A DNA stretch of 64,000 bases. It comes from an uncultured Pedobacter sp. (lineage in GTDB: Bacteria > Bacteroidota > Bacteroidia > Sphingobacteriales > Sphingobacteriaceae). Under the pieces are notes generated by a model that saw only the letters and a program-made list of their open reading frames with translations, did no database searches and had not been told where the DNA came from. The DNA lies in NCBI GenBank assembly GCA_965650335.1, contig CBFGOI010000003.1:28152-92151 (forward strand). Direction: 5' to 3'. Below are positions 15,267 to 23,697 of this stretch, piece by piece; the first letter of the stretch is position 1, and each line of letters opens with the position of its first letter. The translations under genes and the position numbers were made by a program.

Positions 15267-15707
15267 ATGAAATTATTCCGTACCTATATCGTACTTACGT
15301 TAGCCATGCTGATAACCTTGTCGGCAAGCGGGATAACAATTTCTTTGCATAAGTGCTGTGGTTCTATAAAAGGATTTTCGCTTTTCGCTAGTGCTCACAA
15401 ATGTGAGATGGCCGAGAAACCGGCTCCAAAAGACTGCCCCCAACATTCAAAAACATCGCTAAAGAAAACGTCCTGCTGTACAGATCAGAAAATAGTTTTA
15501 ACTAAATCCACAGACAAAGCATTTCCTGCAACTACAAATAGCCAGGTAAAAGAAACGAAACAAAACTTTGATGTTTTGTTTTTCCATACCTTAATTACCA
15601 ACTGGTTTAGTTCATCCGATCAGCAAGAAGAAGAAATACGAAAGCCATCTCCCGGCTTGTTTATCATAGAAGCATTAATTCTCTTGCTTCAGCAATTCAG
15701 ATTATAG
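15267..15707 (+). CDS. HYC_CC_PP-like Cys/His-rich protein
   Basis: N-terminal hydrophobic stretch, then LHKCCG, HKCEM, DCPQH and SCCTD. Located at the head of a metal-efflux cluster. Confidence 0.65.
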   Translation: MKLFRTYIVLTLAMLITLSASGITISLHKCCGSIKGFSLFASAHKCEMAEKPAPKDCPQHSKTSLKKTSCCTDQKIVLTKSTDKAFPATTNSQVKETKQNFDVLFFHTLITNWFSSSDQQEEEIRKPSPGLFIIEALILLLQQFRL

Positions 15708-15867: not shown

Positions 15868-17169
15868 ATGATAGAGAAACTGATTGCATTTTCATTACGC
15901 AACAGGTTTTTAGTTCTCCTTTGTTCGGCGGCCATATTTGTATGGGGAATCTATTCTGTAAAAACCAGTAAAATTGATGCCATTCCGGATTTGTCCGAAA
16001 ATCAGGTAATTGTGTTTACCGAATGGATGGGGCGCAGTCCGCAGCTTATCGAAGACCAAATTACCTATCCACTGGTTACTAATTTGCAAGGTATTCCCAA
16101 GGTGAAGTATGTTAGGGCCAGTTCCATGTTTGGAATGAGTTTTATCTATATCATTTTTGAAGATGATACCGATACCTATTGGGCCCGATCGCGCGTTTTG
16201 GAACGCCTTAGCTCCCTCGGTACTGCCTTACCTGCAGGGGTAAAGCCCACAATGGGGCCCGATGGAACCGGTGTGGGACATGTTTTGTGGTATACTCTGG
16301 ATGCGCCCGGAATGGATTTGGGAGAACAGCGCGCCGTTCAGGATTGGTACATAAAATTCGCCCTGCAAAATGTGAAAGGAATAAGTGAAATCGCCTCTTT
16401 CGGCGGATTTCAAAAACAGTATCAAATAAGTATTGACCCCAATAAATTAAGCTATTACAAACTTGGCTTGTCAGATGTGATGCGCTCGGTAAACTCGAAC
16501 AATAACGAAGCGGGGGGCAGGAAGTTTGAAATGAGCGATATCGGGTACATCATAAAAACTACCGGATACCTGAAATCTATTGAGGAGATTGAAAATCTAT
16601 CAATTAAAACGCGCAACTCAATTCCTGTACGGATTAAAGATGTGGCTTCTGTAGAAATGTCGGGCGAAAGCCGCCTGGGTATTTTTGATTATAACGGCCA
16701 GGGCGAAGCCGTAGGCGGAATTGCTGTTTTGCGGTACGGAGAAAATGCTGATGAAGTAATTGGTCGACTGAAAAATAAAATGAAAGAGGTGAGCAAGGGC
16801 TTACCTGCGGGACTAAAGTTTAACATTGTTTACGACAGGGGCGAACTGATCGAAGAATCGATTTCGTCTATAAAAACGACTTTAATCGAAGAGATGATAG
16901 TCGTTTCACTCATCGTACTACTATTCCTTCTGCATTGGAGAAGTGCTATCAGTATTATTATTCAAATCCCTATTACCATTGCTGCCAGCTTTATCGTATT
17001 GAACGCGTTCGACATCAGTTCAAACATCATGTCTTTAACTGGGATTGCCCTTGCCATAGGGGTAATTGTTGACAATGGAATTATAATGGCCGAGAATGCA
17101 TACCGGCATCTTGCAGTAAGACAGGCGGAGTTAACTGCTTTGCAGAAAGGAGAAACTAATGTTAAATAA
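15868..17169 (+). CDS. cusA: CusA/SilA-type heavy-metal RND permease, N-terminal part (TM1-TM4 plus first periplasmic half)
   Basis: IDAIPDLSENQVIVFTEW, EDQITYPL, LGPDGTGVG-like segment (MGPDGTGVG) and TM4 MSLTGIALAIGVIVDNGIIMAEN. The ORF stops just after TM4. Confidence 0.88.
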   Translation: MIEKLIAFSLRNRFLVLLCSAAIFVWGIYSVKTSKIDAIPDLSENQVIVFTEWMGRSPQLIEDQITYPLVTNLQGIPKVKYVRASSMFGMSFIYIIFEDDTDTYWARSRVLERLSSLGTALPAGVKPTMGPDGTGVGHVLWYTLDAPGMDLGEQRAVQDWYIKFALQNVKGISEIASFGGFQKQYQISIDPNKLSYYKLGLSDVMRSVNSNNNEAGGRKFEMSDIGYIIKTTGYLKSIEEIENLSIKTRNSIPVRIKDVASVEMSGESRLGIFDYNGQGEAVGGIAVLRYGENADEVIGRLKNKMKEVSKGLPAGLKFNIVYDRGELIEESISSIKTTLIEEMIVVSLIVLLFLLHWRSAISIIIQIPITIAASFIVLNAFDISSNIMSLTGIALAIGVIVDNGIIMAENAYRHLAVRQAELTALQKGETNVK

Positions 17170-19102
17170 GTTTAGCAAATACTTTGCTCGTAATAAAAAA
17201 GAGAACTATGTGAGACTTTCTGATGAAGAGCGTTTGCAAATCATTGAAAAATCTTCAAAACAGGTATCTCGCGGAGTTTTTTATTCTACCGTAATAATTA
17301 TCACCTCATTTCTACCGGTTTTTTTATTAACCGGCCAGGAGGGTAAGCTTTTTCATCCGCTGGCATACACCAAAACCTTCATTTTGATGATTGATGCTTT
17401 GCTGGTGGTAACGCTTGCACCGGTTCTGATTTCATTTTTTATGAAAGGACGCTTTCGCATGGAATATGAAAATCCCATTAACCGAAAACTGGAAAGCTTT
17501 TATGAGCCATTAATCCGTACTTGTATAAAACATCGCAAAACTACTATAGGCATAAATATTCTAGCCGTTCTTATTAGCATTCCATTGCTTATGAGTATGG
17601 GCAGAGAGTTTATGCCGCCGTTGGATGAACAGTCGATTTTGTTTATGCCAGTTACTTTGCCCGATGTTTCCAATGCAGAAATCAAACGAATTCTACAGGT
17701 ACAAGATCGAATCATAAAATCTGTTCCCGAAGTAGATAAAGTTTTAGGGAAAGCGGGACGTGCGAGTACAGCTACCGATAACTCGCCTATCAGCATGATA
17801 GAAACCATGATTTCATTGAAGCCAAAGAGCGAATGGCGGCCGGGCCTTACAAAAAAAGATCTGATCAAGGAACTGGATCAAAAGCTTCAGATTCCCGGTG
17901 TGGTAAATGGCTGGACACAGCCTATTATTAACCGGATAAATATGCTTTCAACGGGTATTCGCACAGATGTGGGGGTTAAAGTTTACGGACAGGATTTACA
18001 GCAAATAGACAAAGTGTCAAAGCAGGTGCACTCCCTTTTACAAGGTATCGATGGCGTGAAGGATATTTACGTAGAACCCGTTACAGGGGGTAAATATCTG
18101 GAGATCGATATTCAACGAGATCAGTTGGAGCGCTACGGTTTAACTGTTGAAGATGTAAATTCTACTGTTGAAACCGCTATCGGAGGCGCTCCATTCGCGA
18201 CAACAGTAGAGGGGCGTCGCCGGTTTAACATCAGTCTGCGGTTAGGACAGGATTATCGTAACAGTATCGAACGCTTAAAACGGATTCCCTTGAATTCCCC
18301 TGATGCGGGAGTAGTTCCGCTTTCGTCTGTTACCGAGATCCGTTTTGTAAATGGTCCGCCCATGATTACTTCCGAAAACGCCATTTTACGAGGGGCGGTA
18401 ATGTTTAACGTTCGCGACAGAGATTTGGGGAATACGGTTCAGGAAGCGATTTTAAAGCTTAACAAGCAGCTTCAATTACCGAATGGTGCTTTCATAGAAT
18501 GGAGTGGTCAGTATGAAAACTTAATTCGTGGACAGCAGACATTGGTTTTCATCGCTCCTATTGTTCTATTGATCATTTTCTTATCTCTTTATCTCGCTTT
18601 TAAATCCTTACGGGAAGCCTTTTTGAGTTTGATAACCATTCCATTTGCATTGATCGGTGGCGCCTACCTTGTTTACTTCTGGGGCGTGAATCTTTCGGTA
18701 GCAGTAGCTGTTGGGTTCATTGCTTTGTTTGGTATTGCAGTAGAAACCGGAGTTGTGATGGTAATATATTTAAATGATGCTATGAGCCGGCTGGTAGCTT
18801 TGAAAGGAAATTCCAGAGATACGATCACCAACGACGACCTTAGGGAATATGTGATTGCCGGCGCTGCAAAACGTCTTCGTCCAAAGATTATGACGGTTTG
18901 CGTAGCCCTGTTCGGACTAATTCCGGTGCTGTGGTCGCAGGGAGTGGGAAGTGATGTAATGCAGCCAATTGTGCTGCCTATGATTGGCGGGGTATTGACT
19001 TCTTCCATCCATATTTTGATTGTTACACCACTTATATTTTTAATGACAAAAGAATACGAATTGAACAAATTTGGAAAAATGGAGGTGCACAATGGACATT
19101 AA
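17159..19102 (+). CDS. cusA: CusA/SilA-type heavy-metal RND permease, C-terminal part (TM5-TM12)
   Basis: SFLPVFLLTGQEGKLFHPLAYTK, FMPPLDEQSILFMPVTLP, SPISMIET, RINMLSTGI, GIAVETGVVM and LRPKIMT. Confidence 0.88.
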   Translation: MLNKFSKYFARNKKENYVRLSDEERLQIIEKSSKQVSRGVFYSTVIIITSFLPVFLLTGQEGKLFHPLAYTKTFILMIDALLVVTLAPVLISFFMKGRFRMEYENPINRKLESFYEPLIRTCIKHRKTTIGINILAVLISIPLLMSMGREFMPPLDEQSILFMPVTLPDVSNAEIKRILQVQDRIIKSVPEVDKVLGKAGRASTATDNSPISMIETMISLKPKSEWRPGLTKKDLIKELDQKLQIPGVVNGWTQPIINRINMLSTGIRTDVGVKVYGQDLQQIDKVSKQVHSLLQGIDGVKDIYVEPVTGGKYLEIDIQRDQLERYGLTVEDVNSTVETAIGGAPFATTVEGRRRFNISLRLGQDYRNSIERLKRIPLNSPDAGVVPLSSVTEIRFVNGPPMITSENAILRGAVMFNVRDRDLGNTVQEAILKLNKQLQLPNGAFIEWSGQYENLIRGQQTLVFIAPIVLLIIFLSLYLAFKSLREAFLSLITIPFALIGGAYLVYFWGVNLSVAVAVGFIALFGIAVETGVVMVIYLNDAMSRLVALKGNSRDTITNDDLREYVIAGAAKRLRPKIMTVCVALFGLIPVLWSQGVGSDVMQPIVLPMIGGVLTSSIHILIVTPLIFLMTKEYELNKFGKMEVHNGH

Positions 19103-20561
19103 GAGAATTAGGTCATTAGTTTATAGTTCATTAGTTTATAGTTCAATAGTAAGTTTAGTTAAGGCGCTTAATCTCGCCTTATGTTTCCCTTTTTCTTTGG
19201 GGCGAAGTGTTGGGGATGAGGGGTATTCGTATTCATCTCAAAGTCCCCTCACCCTTAATCCCTCTCCCCGGGGAGAGGGGGTTGGCGCTTTATGCAAGAA
19301 ACTTTATGAGGGAATCTCTTTAAAGCCTGGTCTTTCTTTGATTGTGTTGTGTATGCTTAGTCTCAATATTTCAGCGCAGCAAGGCATGAGCCTGCCGGAA
19401 ATACTGAAAGAAATTGAAGCGAACAATCCATCTCTCAAAACATATGAATATCAGGCGAAAAGTCAGGAAGCAAAGGTCGAGGGTGCGGGCGCATGGATGC
19501 CACCAATGATAGGGGCGGGAACCTTTATGACGCCTTACCCCGGTCAGGGCATGATTGAAGAAGGCGATAAAGGCGCTCTTATGATTTCTGCAGAGCAGGA
19601 TATTCCCAATCCCGCTAAGGTAAAGGCACGGAGAGAATATCTCAATACTTTGGCGGAAACCTATACCCTGGGCCGGTCTGAGCGTTTTAATGAATTGCGA
19701 AGCAGGGCGAGACAGCTTTATTTCGATTTAATCATAGCATCTAAAAAGCAAAAGTTTCAACGCGAGAACAAGCAGATCATGCAAACAATGAAAAAGCTTG
19801 CAGATATTCGCTATCCCTATAACCAGGGAAAACTGAATGAGGTTTTTAAGGCAGAAGGTCGGCTTGCTGAAGCAGATAATATGTTGCTAATGACCGAGGG
19901 ACGGATCAAATCGGATAAAATGGTATTAAATGCCTTGATGAACCGCCCTGCGACCGCATTATTGGAAATTGATACCACTTTGAAAGTGTCGTTTACTCCC
20001 CTCGCTGGTCTCGATTCAACCTATTTGGTCGATGTGCGCAGCGATCTGCGACATATGCAGCATAATATTCATTCGATGCAGGCAAATATTAATCAAATGC
20101 GGCAGCAGGCAAAGCCCGATTTTCGAATCCGCTTCGATCATGCAGCCAATTATTCGGCGATGATGCCAAGTCAGTTTACCCTTATGGGGATGCTCTCCAT
20201 CCCAATCGTTCCATGGTCATCAAAAATGTACAAATCGGAAATTAAATCGATGAATTTTGAAATTGATGCCATGCGTCAGCAAACTGAAGGAATGGTTACA
20301 GAAATGCTTGCCATGGCTAAATCTATGTCGGTCGAACTCACATCGATGGAGCAGCAGCTTAAAGGATATGAAACGAGGATATTGCCCGCTTTGAAGAAGA
20401 GCCTTGATGTTTCGATGCTTTCTTACCAGGAGAATAAAATGGATTTGAGCGAAGTGATTATCAGCTGGGAAGCACTGAACATGACCCAGATGAATTACCT
20501 GGATGCTTTGCAGCGATATTATAAAATGATTACAGATTATGAAAAGAGCATTGAAAGATAA
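19092..20561 (+). CDS. TolC/CusC-like outer membrane efflux factor with a long N-terminal extension
   Basis: EIEANNPSL, coiled-coil OEP repeats, RQQAKPDFRIRF and YQENKMDLSEVI. ATG at 19092 overlaps the cusA-C stop. Confidence 0.82.
   Translation: MDIKRIRSLVYSSLVYSSIVSLVKALNLALCFPFSLGRSVGDEGYSYSSQSPLTLNPSPRGEGVGALCKKLYEGISLKPGLSLIVLCMLSLNISAQQGMSLPEILKEIEANNPSLKTYEYQAKSQEAKVEGAGAWMPPMIGAGTFMTPYPGQGMIEEGDKGALMISAEQDIPNPAKVKARREYLNTLAETYTLGRSERFNELRSRARQLYFDLIIASKKQKFQRENKQIMQTMKKLADIRYPYNQGKLNEVFKAEGRLAEADNMLLMTEGRIKSDKMVLNALMNRPATALLEIDTTLKVSFTPLAGLDSTYLVDVRSDLRHMQHNIHSMQANINQMRQQAKPDFRIRFDHAANYSAMMPSQFTLMGMLSIPIVPWSSKMYKSEIKSMNFEIDAMRQQTEGMVTEMLAMAKSMSVELTSMEQQLKGYETRILPALKKSLDVSMLSYQENKMDLSEVIISWEALNMTQMNYLDALQRYYKMITDYEKSIER
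19113..19150 (+). repeat. 15-nt tandem repeat (2 perfect copies plus a partial) inside the OMF coding frame
   Basis: tcattagtttatagt at 19113-19127 and 19128-19142, then tcaatagt. Encodes SLVYS-SLVYS-SIV. Confidence 0.85.
19212..19279. repeat. REP-like palindromic element inside the OMF coding frame
   Basis: ggggatgagggg ... cccctcaccc, followed by the perfect 20-bp palindrome ccctctccccggggagaggg (19260-19279). Confidence 0.7.
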
Positions 20562-21867
20562 ATCTGCATTCACCATGATTTGCTTTGTGTTACTCTTGCT
20601 TTTTAGTTGTAGAGATAAAGCACACCAAGACGATACAAATTCAGCGACGAAATATACCTGTCCTATGCATCCACAAATTATTTCGGATAAGCCGGGTACC
20701 TGTCCCATTTGCCATATGGAGCTGGTTCCGCTAAAGGCAGCGGCTTCGCATAATGTTGCCGACACGAGTCTTGAAAGTTTAGTCAAACCCACCAATCAAC
20801 TGGTACTTTCTGAAATTAGAACTGTGAAACCATCAGAAGGGGTGCGCACAGCAGATGTAAGAATCCAGGGAATTATAAATTACGATTCCAATAATCGGAA
20901 CGTTATTTCGAGTCGGGTAGGCGGGAGGATTGAGCGATTGTACGTTAAATATAACTATCAAAGCGTCAGCAAGGGGCAAAAGCTGATGGATATTTATAGT
21001 CCTGATTTAGCGAATGCACAACAAGAACTGCTTTACCTGAAGAATAGCGGCGACAAAAACCTTTTAGACGCGGCAAAAATGAAGTTGCGCTTACTTGGAG
21101 CTTCTGACCAACAAATTAATACCCTGCTCAGAACTGGAAAGCTGGACTATACCTTTTCCGTTTATAGTCCGTATTCCGGCTATGTATCCGAACAATCGGG
21201 AGCAGTAGCTGCCGAGACTGCATATAGCTCTGGTACAGTGATTACTGAAAGTTCGGGTTCTTCGATGGGCGAAATGGGTGGAAATAGTGCTTCTGTTGCA
21301 TCAAAATTGCCGACGGTTAAAACAAACTCGCCTCTGCAATTGCGGGAGGGGCAATATATTAGCCAAGGGCAAAAAATATTCGACCTTATAAAGGCTTCTT
21401 CAGTCTGGGCCGAGTTTTTTGCCAGCGCCGAACAGTTGAACTATTTGAAGCGCGAAACTCCTGTGCAGGTAACTGCGCTTGATAACCCGGCACAAAGTAC
21501 TCTATCCAAAATCAGCCTGATCCAGCCTTATTACAGCGAGGGCGCTACATTTTCTCTGGTAAGATCGAAAGTAAATAATTCGGGCAAGCAATGGAAGGTA
21601 GGACAGCTGGTCGAAGTTAAAACAGATGTGGATAGTAAATTTGGGAGCTGGCTTCCCCGAAGTTCAGTTCTGCACTTGGGGTCGAAGTATGTCGCTTTTG
21701 TAAAGAATGAGGGACATTTCATTCCTGTTTATGTAAGAATAACCGAACGGAGAGGCGACTGGGTGGAGATTGGCGAAAGCTTGCCGAAAGATGCGAATGT
21801 TGCAGTAAATGCCTGGTTTTTGGTAGACAGTGAGAGTTTTGTGAAGGTAGATAGTTTGAAGATGTAG
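20539..21867 (+). CDS. cusB: RND periplasmic adaptor (CusB-like) with an N-terminal heavy-metal-binding domain
   Basis: Lipobox LLLLFS-C, YTCPMHPQIISDKPGTCPICHMELV, SRVGGRIERLYV, MDIYSPDLANAQQELL and YSPYSG. Confidence 0.88.
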   Translation: MKRALKDKSAFTMICFVLLLLFSCRDKAHQDDTNSATKYTCPMHPQIISDKPGTCPICHMELVPLKAAASHNVADTSLESLVKPTNQLVLSEIRTVKPSEGVRTADVRIQGIINYDSNNRNVISSRVGGRIERLYVKYNYQSVSKGQKLMDIYSPDLANAQQELLYLKNSGDKNLLDAAKMKLRLLGASDQQINTLLRTGKLDYTFSVYSPYSGYVSEQSGAVAAETAYSSGTVITESSGSSMGEMGGNSASVASKLPTVKTNSPLQLREGQYISQGQKIFDLIKASSVWAEFFASAEQLNYLKRETPVQVTALDNPAQSTLSKISLIQPYYSEGATFSLVRSKVNNSGKQWKVGQLVEVKTDVDSKFGSWLPRSSVLHLGSKYVAFVKNEGHFIPVYVRITERRGDWVEIGESLPKDANVAVNAWFLVDSESFVKVDSLKM

Positions 21868-21941
21868 GCGTTTGTATGCAAAAGTCGATATATATATTTA
21901 AACACATCATGGCTGTAGCAATGATTATTAAATAGATTGAA

Positions 21942-23144
21942 ATGAAATTTAAAAAATTAAATATTCTTGGATTCCTGTTTTTGTGTATAGCGGTATTATG
22001 GCTCCCCGCTTGCGGCGGCGACAATCATTCAGGCGACCACCAGAAAGCTAAAACTGAGGCAAAATACACATGCCCCATGCATCCACAAATAGTACAAAGC
22101 CACCCGGGAAACTGCCCGATTTGCGGCATGGAGCTAGTCCTGATGAAAGATACAGGAAAGGAAATGTCGCTTATGCTAAACGAAAGTCAGATTCAATTGG
22201 CCAATATACAGACCATTAAAGTGGGCTCCTCGAACTTCAATACGTCGAAGATCCTGAATGGCCGCATCGTAACAAACCCTATGCAAACCGAATTGATATC
22301 AAGCCGTATGGCGGGCCGCATCGAACAGCTTTTTGTTAAAGAAACCGGAAGGAAGATCATAAAAGGCGAGCCCCTGTTCAAGGTTTACAGTGAGCAGTTA
22401 CAAGTATTGCAGCAAGATTATTTGCTGCAGATAAAACAGGTGGCGGCTTTTCCGGGAGAAAAAATATATCAGTCTTTAAGGGAGGCTGCTCGAAATAAGT
22501 TAAAACTATTCGGGTACTCTGATGCTCAGATTAGTGCTTTGGCTAAGCGAAACCGTGTGTCGCCATTGGTTACCATGTATGCTTCAGCATCGGGAATCGT
22601 TAATGAAATTAACGTATCAGAGGGACAGTACATCCCGGAAGGAAGTCCGGTTCTACGTTTAGAGAATTATGATCGTTTATGGATCGAAGCAGATGTTTAT
22701 CCTTCAGAAATTAATCAGGTCGCTCTTGGATCAAACCTAAAAGTCGTTGTAAATGGATTATCAGATTTAAGCCAAAATGCAAAGGTCGACTTTATCAGTC
22801 CCGCTTTAGATCCTTCAACTCAACGTTTAACTATTCGTGCGTCTATTGATAATTCTGCAGGTAAAATCCAGCCTGGTATGCAGGCAAATGTATATTTATC
22901 TACCGGAAATGTTTCAAATGTTGTTAGTTTACCAATAGAATCTGTACTTCGGGATGAAAATGGAGCCTACGTTTGGATAAAAACCGCTGCAAATTCTTTC
23001 ACCTCCCGGCAAGTTATTACCGGGGCAGAAGATGCAAACAATATAATTATTACGTCAGGAATTTCTGGCGGCGAAGAAATAGTCACAAGAGGTGCATATT
23101 TGCTGCATAGCGAGCTGACTCTGAAACGAGGAACAAGTCTTTAA
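21942..23144 (+). CDS. cusB: Second RND periplasmic adaptor (CusB-like) with an N-terminal heavy-metal-binding domain
   Basis: Lipobox WLPA-C, YTCPMHPQIVQSHPGNCPICGMELV, SRMAGRIEQLFV, LWIEADVY and IQPGMQA. Confidence 0.88.
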   Translation: MKFKKLNILGFLFLCIAVLWLPACGGDNHSGDHQKAKTEAKYTCPMHPQIVQSHPGNCPICGMELVLMKDTGKEMSLMLNESQIQLANIQTIKVGSSNFNTSKILNGRIVTNPMQTELISSRMAGRIEQLFVKETGRKIIKGEPLFKVYSEQLQVLQQDYLLQIKQVAAFPGEKIYQSLREAARNKLKLFGYSDAQISALAKRNRVSPLVTMYASASGIVNEINVSEGQYIPEGSPVLRLENYDRLWIEADVYPSEINQVALGSNLKVVVNGLSDLSQNAKVDFISPALDPSTQRLTIRASIDNSAGKIQPGMQANVYLSTGNVSNVVSLPIESVLRDENGAYVWIKTAANSFTSRQVITGAEDANNIIITSGISGGEEIVTRGAYLLHSELTLKRGTSL

Positions 23145-23163: not shown

Positions 23164-23697
23164 ATGAAAATGAACACAATCCTAATTAGCAGTCTGGCTG
23201 TGCTTTTTGCAGTGTCAACCGCATGTCAATCAGAAACAACAAACAAAACTGCTACAGAACAACACGACGATCATGAGCAGGAAACTGCAGTAGTCGAAGC
23301 AGGTAATCCTGAATTTAAAGATGAATCGTCAAATGCCGTTTATCAGCATTACATTCATCTAAAAACGGCCTTGGTTAATTCTGATGTTAAAGAAGCTCAG
23401 GCCGGGGCATTGGCTTTAAAAGCAGCATTAACTAGTGTCGGCAGCAAGAAAGGCGCAGATGTTGCTTCTAAAATCGCCGCTTCTTCCGATATTAAACAAC
23501 AACGCAATGACTTGAATGCCTTAACCATCGAGGTTGAAACGGTGATTAAAAAAACAGGACTTAAATCGGGGAAAATCTACAAGCAATATTGCCCGATGGC
23601 AGATGCATATTGGTTAGCCAGCGAAAAAGAGATTAGGAATCCGTATTATGGTAATGATATGTTGAATTGCGGAGAAGTTAAGGGAGAAATAAAATAA
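23164..23697 (+). CDS. DUF3347-domain lipoprotein (metal-efflux associated)
   Basis: Lipobox VSTA-C, HDDHE, YQHYIHLKTALV, QYCPMA-x-x-x-WL and NPYYGNDMLNCG. Confidence 0.82.
   Translation: MKMNTILISSLAVLFAVSTACQSETTNKTATEQHDDHEQETAVVEAGNPEFKDESSNAVYQHYIHLKTALVNSDVKEAQAGALALKAALTSVGSKKGADVASKIAASSDIKQQRNDLNALTIEVETVIKKTGLKSGKIYKQYCPMADAYWLASEKEIRNPYYGNDMLNCGEVKGEIK

Follow-up and report, generated by a model that had tools for sequence, protein, structure and literature searches.

A CusA-type efflux permease probably made as two chains through an ancient natural gene split in Bacteroidia

Metal and drug efflux in Gram-negative bacteria is powered by RND permeases, which are regarded as single chains of 12 transmembrane (TM) helices. 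To our knowledge, CusA is a single protein chain in every bacterium in which it has been studied. SecD/SecF, the RND-superfamily protein-export factor, is encoded by two genes in Escherichia coli and by one fused gene in Bacillus subtilis. MexB that was split in the laboratory (by Eda, Yoneyama and Nakae, in Biochemistry in 2003) reportedly works as two separate polypeptides, the cut being said to lie in the large loop that joins TM6 to TM7 on the cytoplasmic side. In MdtBC, two paralogous protomers, MdtB and MdtC, each of full length, share one trimer (PMC7015380). A literature search for described split RND, CusA or CzcA proteins found nothing relevant, the part of a tripartite-pump review (PMC8277102) that was available to us makes no mention of a split RND permease, and the split CusA family seems to be undescribed.

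Here we analysed a 64,000-nucleotide stretch of DNA from an uncultured Pedobacter sp. (hereafter, the window), in which a first-pass annotation had proposed that cusA is naturally split into two open reading frames (ORFs). The ORFs lie in a cluster with the following features:

15267–15707, plus strand: first gene of the cluster, a small HYC_CC_PP/DUF8199 protein (NCBIfam NF047658, E 1e-11; DUF8199 from PF26622 on the identical gene in an ENA contig).
15868–17169, plus strand: cusA-N, N chain of the split CusA-type RND permease, 433 amino acids (aa), with TM1, the first periplasmic loop, TM2–TM4 and D402 (CusA D405).
17149–17152, plus strand: Shine–Dalgarno (SD)-like GGAG, 6 nt 5′ of the cusA-C ATG and within codons of the N-chain tail.
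17159–17169, plus strand: stop/start overlap of cusA-N and cusA-C, ATGttaaaTAA, 11 nt.
17159–19102, plus strand: cusA-C, C chain of the split permease, 647 aa, with a basic head, TM5–TM7, the second periplasmic loop carrying M163, M213 and M262, and TM8–TM12 carrying E529 and K576.
19092–20561, plus strand: TolC/CusC-like outer-membrane factor (OMF; PF02321 OEP, E 3e-15), the mature part starting near 19380.
19100–19330, no strand: REP/MITE-like palindromic insert that separates, in frame, the coupled OMF start from the signal peptide.
20539–21867, plus strand: membrane-fusion (adaptor) protein 1, CusB-like (PF16576, E 3e-44; CusB model NF007303), with an N-terminal heavy-metal-binding domain (PF19335 HMBD, E 2e-13).
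21942–23144, plus strand: membrane-fusion (adaptor) protein 2, CusB-like, with an HMBD (PF16576, E 7e-53; PF19335, E 4e-14), scoring 135 bits against TIGR01730, over the cut-off of that model.
23164–23697, plus strand: last gene of the cluster, a DUF3347 protein (PF11827, E 1e-14).

The cluster thus encodes tripartite partners beside the cusA halves, namely an OEP-type OMF and two HlyD_D23/CusB-like adaptors with HMBDs. The split CusA is the sole HME-type pump of the genome, and the remaining RND paralogues are full length. A sigma-70 promoter scan, the model of which does not cover Bacteroidota promoters, found sites no more commonly than in shuffled sequence.

Taken jointly, the two ORFs are colinear with complete CusA and no element is lost. 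Residues 1–417 of the N chain align to residues 1–420 of E. coli CusA (PDB CusA, E 3e-120), and residues 20–627 of the C chain to residues 430–1035 (E 7e-159). The cut falls in the cytoplasmic TM4–TM5 loop, near E. coli CusA residue 428. A 16-aa tail and a 19-aa head (around 35 residues) stand in place of a 9-residue loop, and therefore add roughly 26 residues, close to the 25 or so first estimated. Hydropathy places four TM segments in the N chain and eight in the C chain at the expected positions, which, together with the colinearity, bears out the asymmetric 4 + 8 division that had been proposed. The 12 TM helices of the family and its two large periplasmic loops, which follow TM1 and TM7, are present but shared over two chains, and the single polypeptide of around 1,000–1,100 aa per protomer that is typical of the family is replaced by two ORFs. 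The HME-RND model TIGR00914 (CusA/CzcA family) is by far the best for both chains. It matches the N chain over model positions 1–428 (451.8 bits) and the C chain over positions 419–1036 (630.6 bits), so that each half alone falls below the curated cut-off of 701.45 bits whereas jointly they span the model and sum to around 1,082 bits. AlphaFold2 models of the separate halves, made with 56–57 family sequences, had low confidence (mean pLDDT 65 for N and 51 for C); Foldseek with the low-confidence N model returned CusA first (E 8.5e-30) with a TM-score of only 0.45 and an rmsd of 14 Å. These models are silent on assembly and we base no conclusion on them.

The Met triad and the charged residues named in the first reading are intact. 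C-chain M163, M213 and M262 correspond to the three-Met site of E. coli CusA (M573, M623 and M672), which all 75 split pumps compared retain. The proton-relay residues are divided between the chains, with D402 on the N chain equivalent to D405 (TM4), and E529 and K576 on the C chain equivalent to E939 (TM10) and K984 (TM11); among the same 75 pumps these are conserved in 75, 75 and 74 cases, respectively. The methionine-pair relay of E. coli CusA runs through the TM and periplasmic domains with the pairs M410–M501, M403–M486, M391–M1009 and M271–M755. Of these residues, M391, M1009 and M410 are invariant, and the E. coli methionines M403, M486, M501, M271 and M755 are replaced (in the window by I, L, I, S and P). 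From the conserved three-Met site and the neighbouring genes, we infer that the substrate is Cu(I)/Ag(I).

At the junction, both ORFs lie on the plus strand, with the C frame at +1 relative to the N frame. The 11-nt overlap and the GGAG 6 nt before the cusA-C ATG are both as first recorded, and so is the like geometry at the next junction, where GGAGG (19081–19085) lies 6 nt before the OMF ATG at 19092 and the cusA-C TAA (19100–19102) closes another 11-nt overlap. This coupled ATG..TAA arrangement with GGAGG at the cusA-C/OMF junction is conserved in relatives L013–L023. Overlaps of the N and C genes in near relatives L011–L028 are 8 or 11 nt, and all 19 split loci scored within the Sphingobacteriaceae subclade of the window (L011–L028 and L032) have the SD-like motif at the N/C junction, which every other split locus lacks. 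The overlap and the GGAG point to translational coupling and to equal amounts of the two chains.

Two other readings start from the same junction. One is that cusA is truly a single gene, interrupted by a sequencing or assembly indel or recently turned into a pseudogene; a one-base change near 17135–17169 would join the frames, and the genome is a draft of 203 contigs. The other is that programmed +1 frameshifting (or stop read-through in relatives in which the halves are in frame) yields one full-length chain, with the SD-like GGAG acting as a stimulator as in prfB. The C frame is always +1 in the Sphingobacteriaceae subclade, GGAG or GGAGG lies a few nucleotides 5′ of the overlap, and around 11 codons ahead of the N stop are open in the C frame. 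However, the same GGAGG-ATG..TAA geometry is found at the ordinary cusA-C/OMF junction.

The split is not confined to this genome. The first-pass annotation had suggested looking for splits at the same position in other Bacteroidota, with uniformly fused close relatives counting against a natural split; the close relatives are split. Among loci from related GTDB species, 73 of 80 are cut at this same site, and N chains of 424–435 aa with 83–94% identity form more than 120 protein clusters. Class-wide sampling of 401 species of Bacteroidia gave 57 copies, of which 53 carry the cut at this position, and carriers make up 51 species (around 13%) and 35 of 200 genera. Among the matches listed from a phylum-wide sample, those from the class of the window at ≥59% identity, and one at 54%, all lie in open frames of 426–475 aa; matches from other classes have ≤59% identity, in frames almost all of 1,030–1,260 aa. 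The split position is conserved over Sphingobacteriales, Cytophagales, Chitinophagales and Flavobacteriales, with Pedobacter superstes, Daejeonella rubra, Chitinophaga filiformis and Flavobacterium hibernum among the carriers that can be cultured. With this break present in hundreds of independent genomes, the pattern far exceeds what chance would give. Three short matches from a 50%-cluster search (P0175, P0177 and P0248) were rejected as independent splits, as they end in or just past TM5 at contig ends.

Junction architectures across the family are diverse. In the 81 split loci scored, the C frame relative to N is +1 in 36, +2 in 29 and 0 in 16; there are 37 overlaps (1–34 nt), 33 gaps of ≤30 nt and 11 gaps of 54–686 nt, the shortest gap being 1 nt, and at four loci (L034, L042, L063 and L065) whole unrelated genes stand between the halves. 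An ATG is rightly placed for the C chain in 81 of 81, followed by a conserved basic head. Given such diverse junctions and intervening genes, the halves are therefore separate cistrons, and we reject frameshifting as a general mechanism because of this diversity. We regard it as a highly improbable explanation, although minor frameshift products may be made in the Sphingobacteriaceae subclade.

Purifying selection is equally strong on both halves. Compared with L013, dN is 0.048 and 0.061 for the two halves, whereas dS is saturated at 1.9–2.5, giving a ratio of around 0.025. Such values, and functional residues that are all intact, argue against a recent pseudogene, and the junction DNA is identical in two further assemblies. 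The conserved split site in four orders, the many junction architectures, selection on both halves and the two identical assemblies exclude the indel artefact that the first-pass annotation had left open, and we give it next to no credence.

Phylogenetic analysis traces the split to a single, ancient fission basal to a Bacteroidia clade, with at least four re-fusions since then. The tree places one fission (SH-aLRT 100) with fused clades nested inside, and monophyly of the split forms is rejected by an AU test (delta lnL 236, p 2e-52). With enlarged sampling we count five state changes, which implies at least four re-fusions. Linkers of the re-fused proteins retain remnants of the tail and head, for example, ELNG-PIPDLERL and WRSWFTRRPDPL. 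Net charge averages +2.3 for the C-chain head, which is positive in 54 of 62 cases, whereas the linkers of fused forms range from −4 to 0.

Both chains could be made without forming a CusA-like pump; for example, the C chain might act alone with the adaptors and the N chain have another role. In favour of such a reading, the three-Met site and 8 of the 12 TM helices belong to the C chain. The N chain, however, carries the essential TM4 aspartate (the D405 equivalent), which is invariant. It also carries the first periplasmic loop, which in every solved RND pump accounts for half of the periplasmic portion. The two genes are adjacent and co-oriented in 80 of 80 related loci examined, and their rates of evolution are alike. 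Repeated re-fusion into one chain of working length indicates that the halves still fit together. We therefore judge this alternative very unlikely.

The two ORFs very probably encode two chains of one working CusA-type Cu(I)/Ag(I) RND permease that arose by an ancient natural split, a reading that the same cut in four orders, the varied junctions and selection on both halves support. On this reading, a single ancestral cusA was cut once in the cytoplasmic TM4–TM5 loop at the base of the Bacteroidia clade. The pump would since have been made as an N chain of around 430 aa (TM1, first periplasmic loop and TM2–4) and a C chain of around 645 aa (TM5–7, second periplasmic loop and TM8–12). Neither chain would need an additional translocation step, because both new ends are cytoplasmic. 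The short basic N-terminal head that the C chain has gained would fit the positive-inside rule, with TM5 as a new N-in first helix. The chains would pack into a normal 12-TM protomer, with three protomers forming the trimer, probably as (N·C)3. The proton relay would be a composite of D402 from the N chain and E529 and K576 from the C chain, and the M388–M601 methionine pair would span both chains. Partners of the split permease would be the OMF and the two CusB-like adaptors encoded downstream. More broadly, we think it somewhat probable that a large Bacteroidia clade carries a two-chain, hetero-hexameric N3C3 Cu/Ag RND pump, which arose once, was kept in around 93% of descendants and reverted at least four times.

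One feature of the window bears on expression in this strain. The insert at 19100–19330 contains a perfect 20-bp palindrome (19260–19279) and a 15-nt tandem repeat (19109–19138), and is missing from relatives L016–L023, in which the OMF signal peptide directly follows the ATG. This in-frame REP-like insert raises a doubt about full expression of the whole tripartite system.

The split family seems to have gone undescribed partly because RND surveys drop hits of less than around 850 aa (one survey filtered out hits of <852 aa; PMC10872679) and because the halves score under the family cut-off. As each half is below the TIGR00914 threshold, split pumps are annotated merely as ‘efflux RND transporter permease subunit’. 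Poorly named and filtered by length, they lead to an under-count of the metal-efflux capacity of soil and freshwater Bacteroidota. The natural split suggests that covalent continuity between TM4 and TM5 is not needed in the first TM bundle, and that a proton relay can be built from two polypeptides. Split pumps and their naturally re-fused sisters offer a ready comparison for studying RND protomer assembly and the coupling of protons to substrate.

Compared with E. coli CusA (CusCFBA; PDB 3K07, 3NE5 and 4DNT), the window permease is colinear over the full length at around 40–42% identity, conserves the three-Met site and the D405/E939/K984 relay, and adjoins genes for CusB-like adaptors and an OMF. 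It differs in being made as chains of 433 and 647 aa, cut at the TM4–TM5 loop with the extra residues there, and in lacking several relay methionines. The cluster in the window is without cusF or cusRS, and has the HYC_CC_PP and DUF3347 genes and two adaptors that both bear an N-terminal HMBD. As with SecD/SecF, a 12-TM RND-superfamily unit occurs naturally as one or two chains that interconvert in evolution. SecDF, however, is cut 6 + 6 between the repeats and forms no tripartite efflux pump, whereas the 4 + 8 split in the window, natural and reversible, lies inside the first repeat, right after TM4, the helix of the proton relay. The split in MexB is artificial and reportedly at TM6/TM7; that in the window is natural, ancient and at TM4/TM5. 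Like MdtBC, the permease would be an RND inner-membrane component that needs the products of two adjacent genes, but the genes in the window appear to encode two pieces of one protomer.

The CusA-type RND permease in the window is encoded by two overlapping open reading frames (ORFs), followed by the gene for an outer-membrane factor (OMF; 19092..20561) and two CusB-like adaptor genes. The permease genes, the GGAG motif at their junction and the genes that border the cluster are as follows.

15267-15707: HYC_CC_PP/DUF8199 small uncharacterised protein, at one border of the cluster
15868..17169, + strand: cusA-N, ORF of 433 aa (N chain)
17149-17152: GGAG, 6 nt upstream of the cusA-C ATG
17159..19102, + strand: cusA-C, ORF of 647 aa (C chain)
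23164-23697: DUF3347 small uncharacterised protein, at the other border

The ATG of cusA-C sits within the last codons of cusA-N (ATGttaaaTAA, an 11-nt overlap), in the +1 frame relative to cusA-N. The cusA-C/OMF junction has the same geometry (GGAGG 19081-19085, ATG 19092, TAA 19100-19102). Inspection of the ORFs and the sequence thus bears out all that the first-pass annotation had described here: the lengths of the two frames, their overlap, the GGAG and the repeated arrangement at the OMF gene.

In profile searches (Pfam and NCBIfam), the RND permease family was the sole match for both ORFs. The N chain covers positions 2-430 of Pfam ACR_tran and the C chain 416-1019; in NCBIfam TIGR00914 (CusA/CzcA) they cover 1-428 (451.8 bits) and 419-1036 (630.6 bits). 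Either half alone scores below the curated cut-off of that model (701.45 bits), which fits the naming of the halves in public records as ‘efflux RND transporter permease subunit’. The closest solved structures for both chains are E. coli CusA entries, with N residues 1-417 aligned to CusA 1-420 (E 3e-120) and C residues 20-627 to CusA 430-1035 (E 7e-159); ZneA, a divalent-metal pump, is far weaker (7e-76 and 3e-95, respectively). The genome holds no second HME-type pump, and its remaining RND genes are full length.

A single indel would also join the two frames, and the first-pass annotation, which favoured a natural split, had left that artefact open. We reject a sequencing or assembly artefact, because the same cut recurs across species and the junction DNA is identical in two other metagenome assemblies. 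A search for N-chain homologues that admitted only proteins of similar length yielded more than 120 clusters with lengths of 424-435 aa (83-94% identity) from Pedobacter, Arcticibacter, Daejeonella, Desertivirga and many metagenomes. When other Bacteroidota were searched for splits at this position, 73 of 80 GTDB species loci proved to have the cut at this very point, the other 7 being single frames; the 80 loci cover Sphingobacteriaceae, Hymenobacteraceae, Spirosomataceae, Cyclobacteriaceae, Fulvivirgaceae, Chitinophagaceae and Flavobacterium. Among the matches listed from an even phylum sample of 401 genomes, all own-class matches of at least 59% identity, and one further at 54%, lie in open frames of 426-475 aa; other-class matches are at most 59% identical, in frames almost all of 1030-1260 aa. 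In the class sample the pump is present in 51 of 401 species (35 of 200 genera), and 53 of its 57 copies are split. Clustering at 50% places the entire split family under one 427-aa representative, the next relatives being full length. Three split copies lie within 35 kb of each other in a single Bacteroidia genome (at 368844, 375176 and 402583 of one contig; 59%, 66% and 72% identical to the N chain of the window), so that each N chain would need to find its own C chain.

In a maximum-likelihood tree of concatenated N and C sequences, rooted with full-length pumps of the phylum's other classes, all Bacteroidia sequences form one clade (SH-aLRT 100) with a split backbone, and five single-chain Cytophagales form a clade nested deep within the split forms. 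A tree uniting the split forms is rejected by the AU test (delta lnL 236, p 2e-52), for a group defined after the tree was seen. Together with the four single-chain copies of the class sample, the tree requires a minimum of five state changes, that is, a single fission followed by four or more re-fusions. The re-fused linkers retain pieces of both former ends. In L029, one of the five Cytophagales loci, the linker reads ...RYAELNG-PIPDLERL..., and its split sisters have ...RFEELNNK(stop) and MATKNYIPIPEQERL...; the linker of another re-fused locus, L112, retains WRSWFTRRPDPL, the counterpart of MAKWFKRNIDPL, which is the head in its split sister. Nested re-fusions with such remnants indicate that the two states interconvert and that both must work, the split being the state that persisted. 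On the comparative evidence, this two-chain variant of CusA is natural, of ancient origin and widespread.

Alignment with the E. coli CusA sequence from NC_000913 places the break near residue 428, in the cytoplasmic loop after TM4, where a 16-aa N-chain tail and a 19-aa C-chain head replace a 9-residue loop. Across split loci the cut always falls between two motifs: ENAY(R/K)xL, where TM4 ends, and EERLxIIEKSSKQV, which precedes TM5. Hydropathy gives four segments in the N chain and eight in the C chain (residues 39-57, 68-91, 130-148, 462-480, 487-505, 510-528, 573-595 and 604-629), in agreement with the asymmetric 4 + 8 TM division first proposed; by known RND topology, both new chain ends lie in the cytoplasm. 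The methionine triad and charged residues, previously read as intact, are so in the alignment.

Residues of E. coli CusA and their aligned equivalents in the window
Three-Met metal site: M573, M623, M672; window C-M163, C-M213, C-M262
Proton relay, TM4: D405; window N-D402
Proton relay, TM10: E939; window C-E529
Proton relay, TM11: K984; window C-K576
TM methionine pair: M391-M1009; window N-M388, C-M601

Residues of the proton relay, and of one methionine pair, are thus distributed over the two chains. Five further relay methionines of E. coli CusA are absent from the aligned window pump.

The junctions vary among the 81 split loci scored. The C frame is +1 relative to the N frame in 36, +2 in 29 and the same in 16; overlaps of 1-34 nt occur in 37, short gaps (≤30 nt) in 33 and longer gaps (54-686 nt) in 11. 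Unrelated whole genes can separate the halves: a 124-aa 23S_rRNA_IVP (PF05635) four-helix-bundle ORF in two Pontibacter loci (L034, 7288-7742; L042, 7276-7703), and a SAM-dependent methyltransferase ORF of ~210 aa in Spirosoma (L063, 7396-8015) and Chitinophaga japonensis (L065, 7288-7973). With such genes in between, neither frameshifting nor read-through can be the general mode of expression. In a comparison with Pedobacter superstes, the nearest relative, the N half has a dN of 0.048 and the C half one of 0.061, and dS is 1.9-2.5, giving dN/dS of ~0.025 for both; at greater distances dS is saturated, with dN still equal between halves. By these measures each half is a cistron of its own and under selection. 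In the Sphingobacteriaceae subclade to which the window belongs, an SD-like GGAG(G) accompanies an overlap of 8 or 11 nt, which suggests translational coupling and equal chain amounts; the motif occurs in 19 of 19 loci of this subclade and in none of the other split loci. In relatives, cusA-C and the OMF gene are linked by the same arrangement.

The cluster is flanked upstream by kdp, on the opposite strand, and downstream by rhamnose catabolism genes, with no cusF, cusRS or other regulator evident within it. Its two tandem, divergent CusB-like adaptor genes (20539-23144) each carry an N-terminal CPMHP-type heavy-metal-binding domain (PF19335), suggesting a mixed adaptor ring. Within 19092-19380, a REP/MITE-like element follows the coupled OMF ATG (19092) in frame and precedes the OMF signal peptide, adding ~80-95 codons. 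It contains a perfect 20-bp palindrome (19260-19279) and a 15-nt tandem repeat (19109-19138), as well as a small hairpin (19160-19181). In relatives L016-L023 the signal peptide immediately follows the OMF ATG, and L012-L014 have other inserts at the same spot; the insert might affect OMF expression in this strain. The linkers of two re-fused Cytophagales pumps (L038, PLPLSSGEGFRVRS; L046, PLSFEEGPGVR) resemble the translated element (PLTLNPSPRGEGVG). Some of the cusA fusions may have involved a repeat element.

The head of the C chain is basic: its net charge averages +2.3 (+2.95 across the first 14 residues) and is positive in 54 of 62; the equivalent linker of single-chain forms has a net charge of -4 to 0. 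Under the positive-inside rule, this head would anchor the chain in the cytoplasm and orient TM5 in its role as new first helix, after which the two chains would pack into a normal 12-TM protomer and then a trimer. AlphaFold2 single-chain models are of low confidence (pLDDT 65 for N, 51 for C); the low-confidence N-chain model has CusA as its top Foldseek match, with a TM-score of only 0.45. We infer a Cu(I)/Ag(I) substrate on three grounds: the three-Met site is invariant, CusA is matched more closely than ZneA, and the neighbouring genes encode the two adaptors with heavy-metal-binding domains, an OEP, DUF3347 and HYC_CC_PP. The conserved catalytic residues on both chains support the original reading as a two-chain Cu(I)/Ag(I) RND pump, with assembly and substrate as probable features. 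Overall, the first observation is confirmed, and comparative sequence evidence supports its interpretation.

The literature searched gave no account of a CusA, CzcA or RND permease in split form. A broad phylogenetic survey of HME, NFE and HAE-1 pumps dropped matches of <852 aa (PMC10872679), a filter that would remove a split-pump family. Within the literature searched, two-chain CusA therefore appears to be undescribed. The split pump is homologous over its full length to E. coli CusA and would work in the same way, but it departs from the family as described in one defining feature, the single polypeptide. MexB has reportedly been split in the laboratory, between TM6 and TM7. The nearest natural precedent is SecD/SecF, a divided unit of the RND superfamily in which the cut is symmetric (6 + 6), whereas that of the split CusA is 4 + 8.
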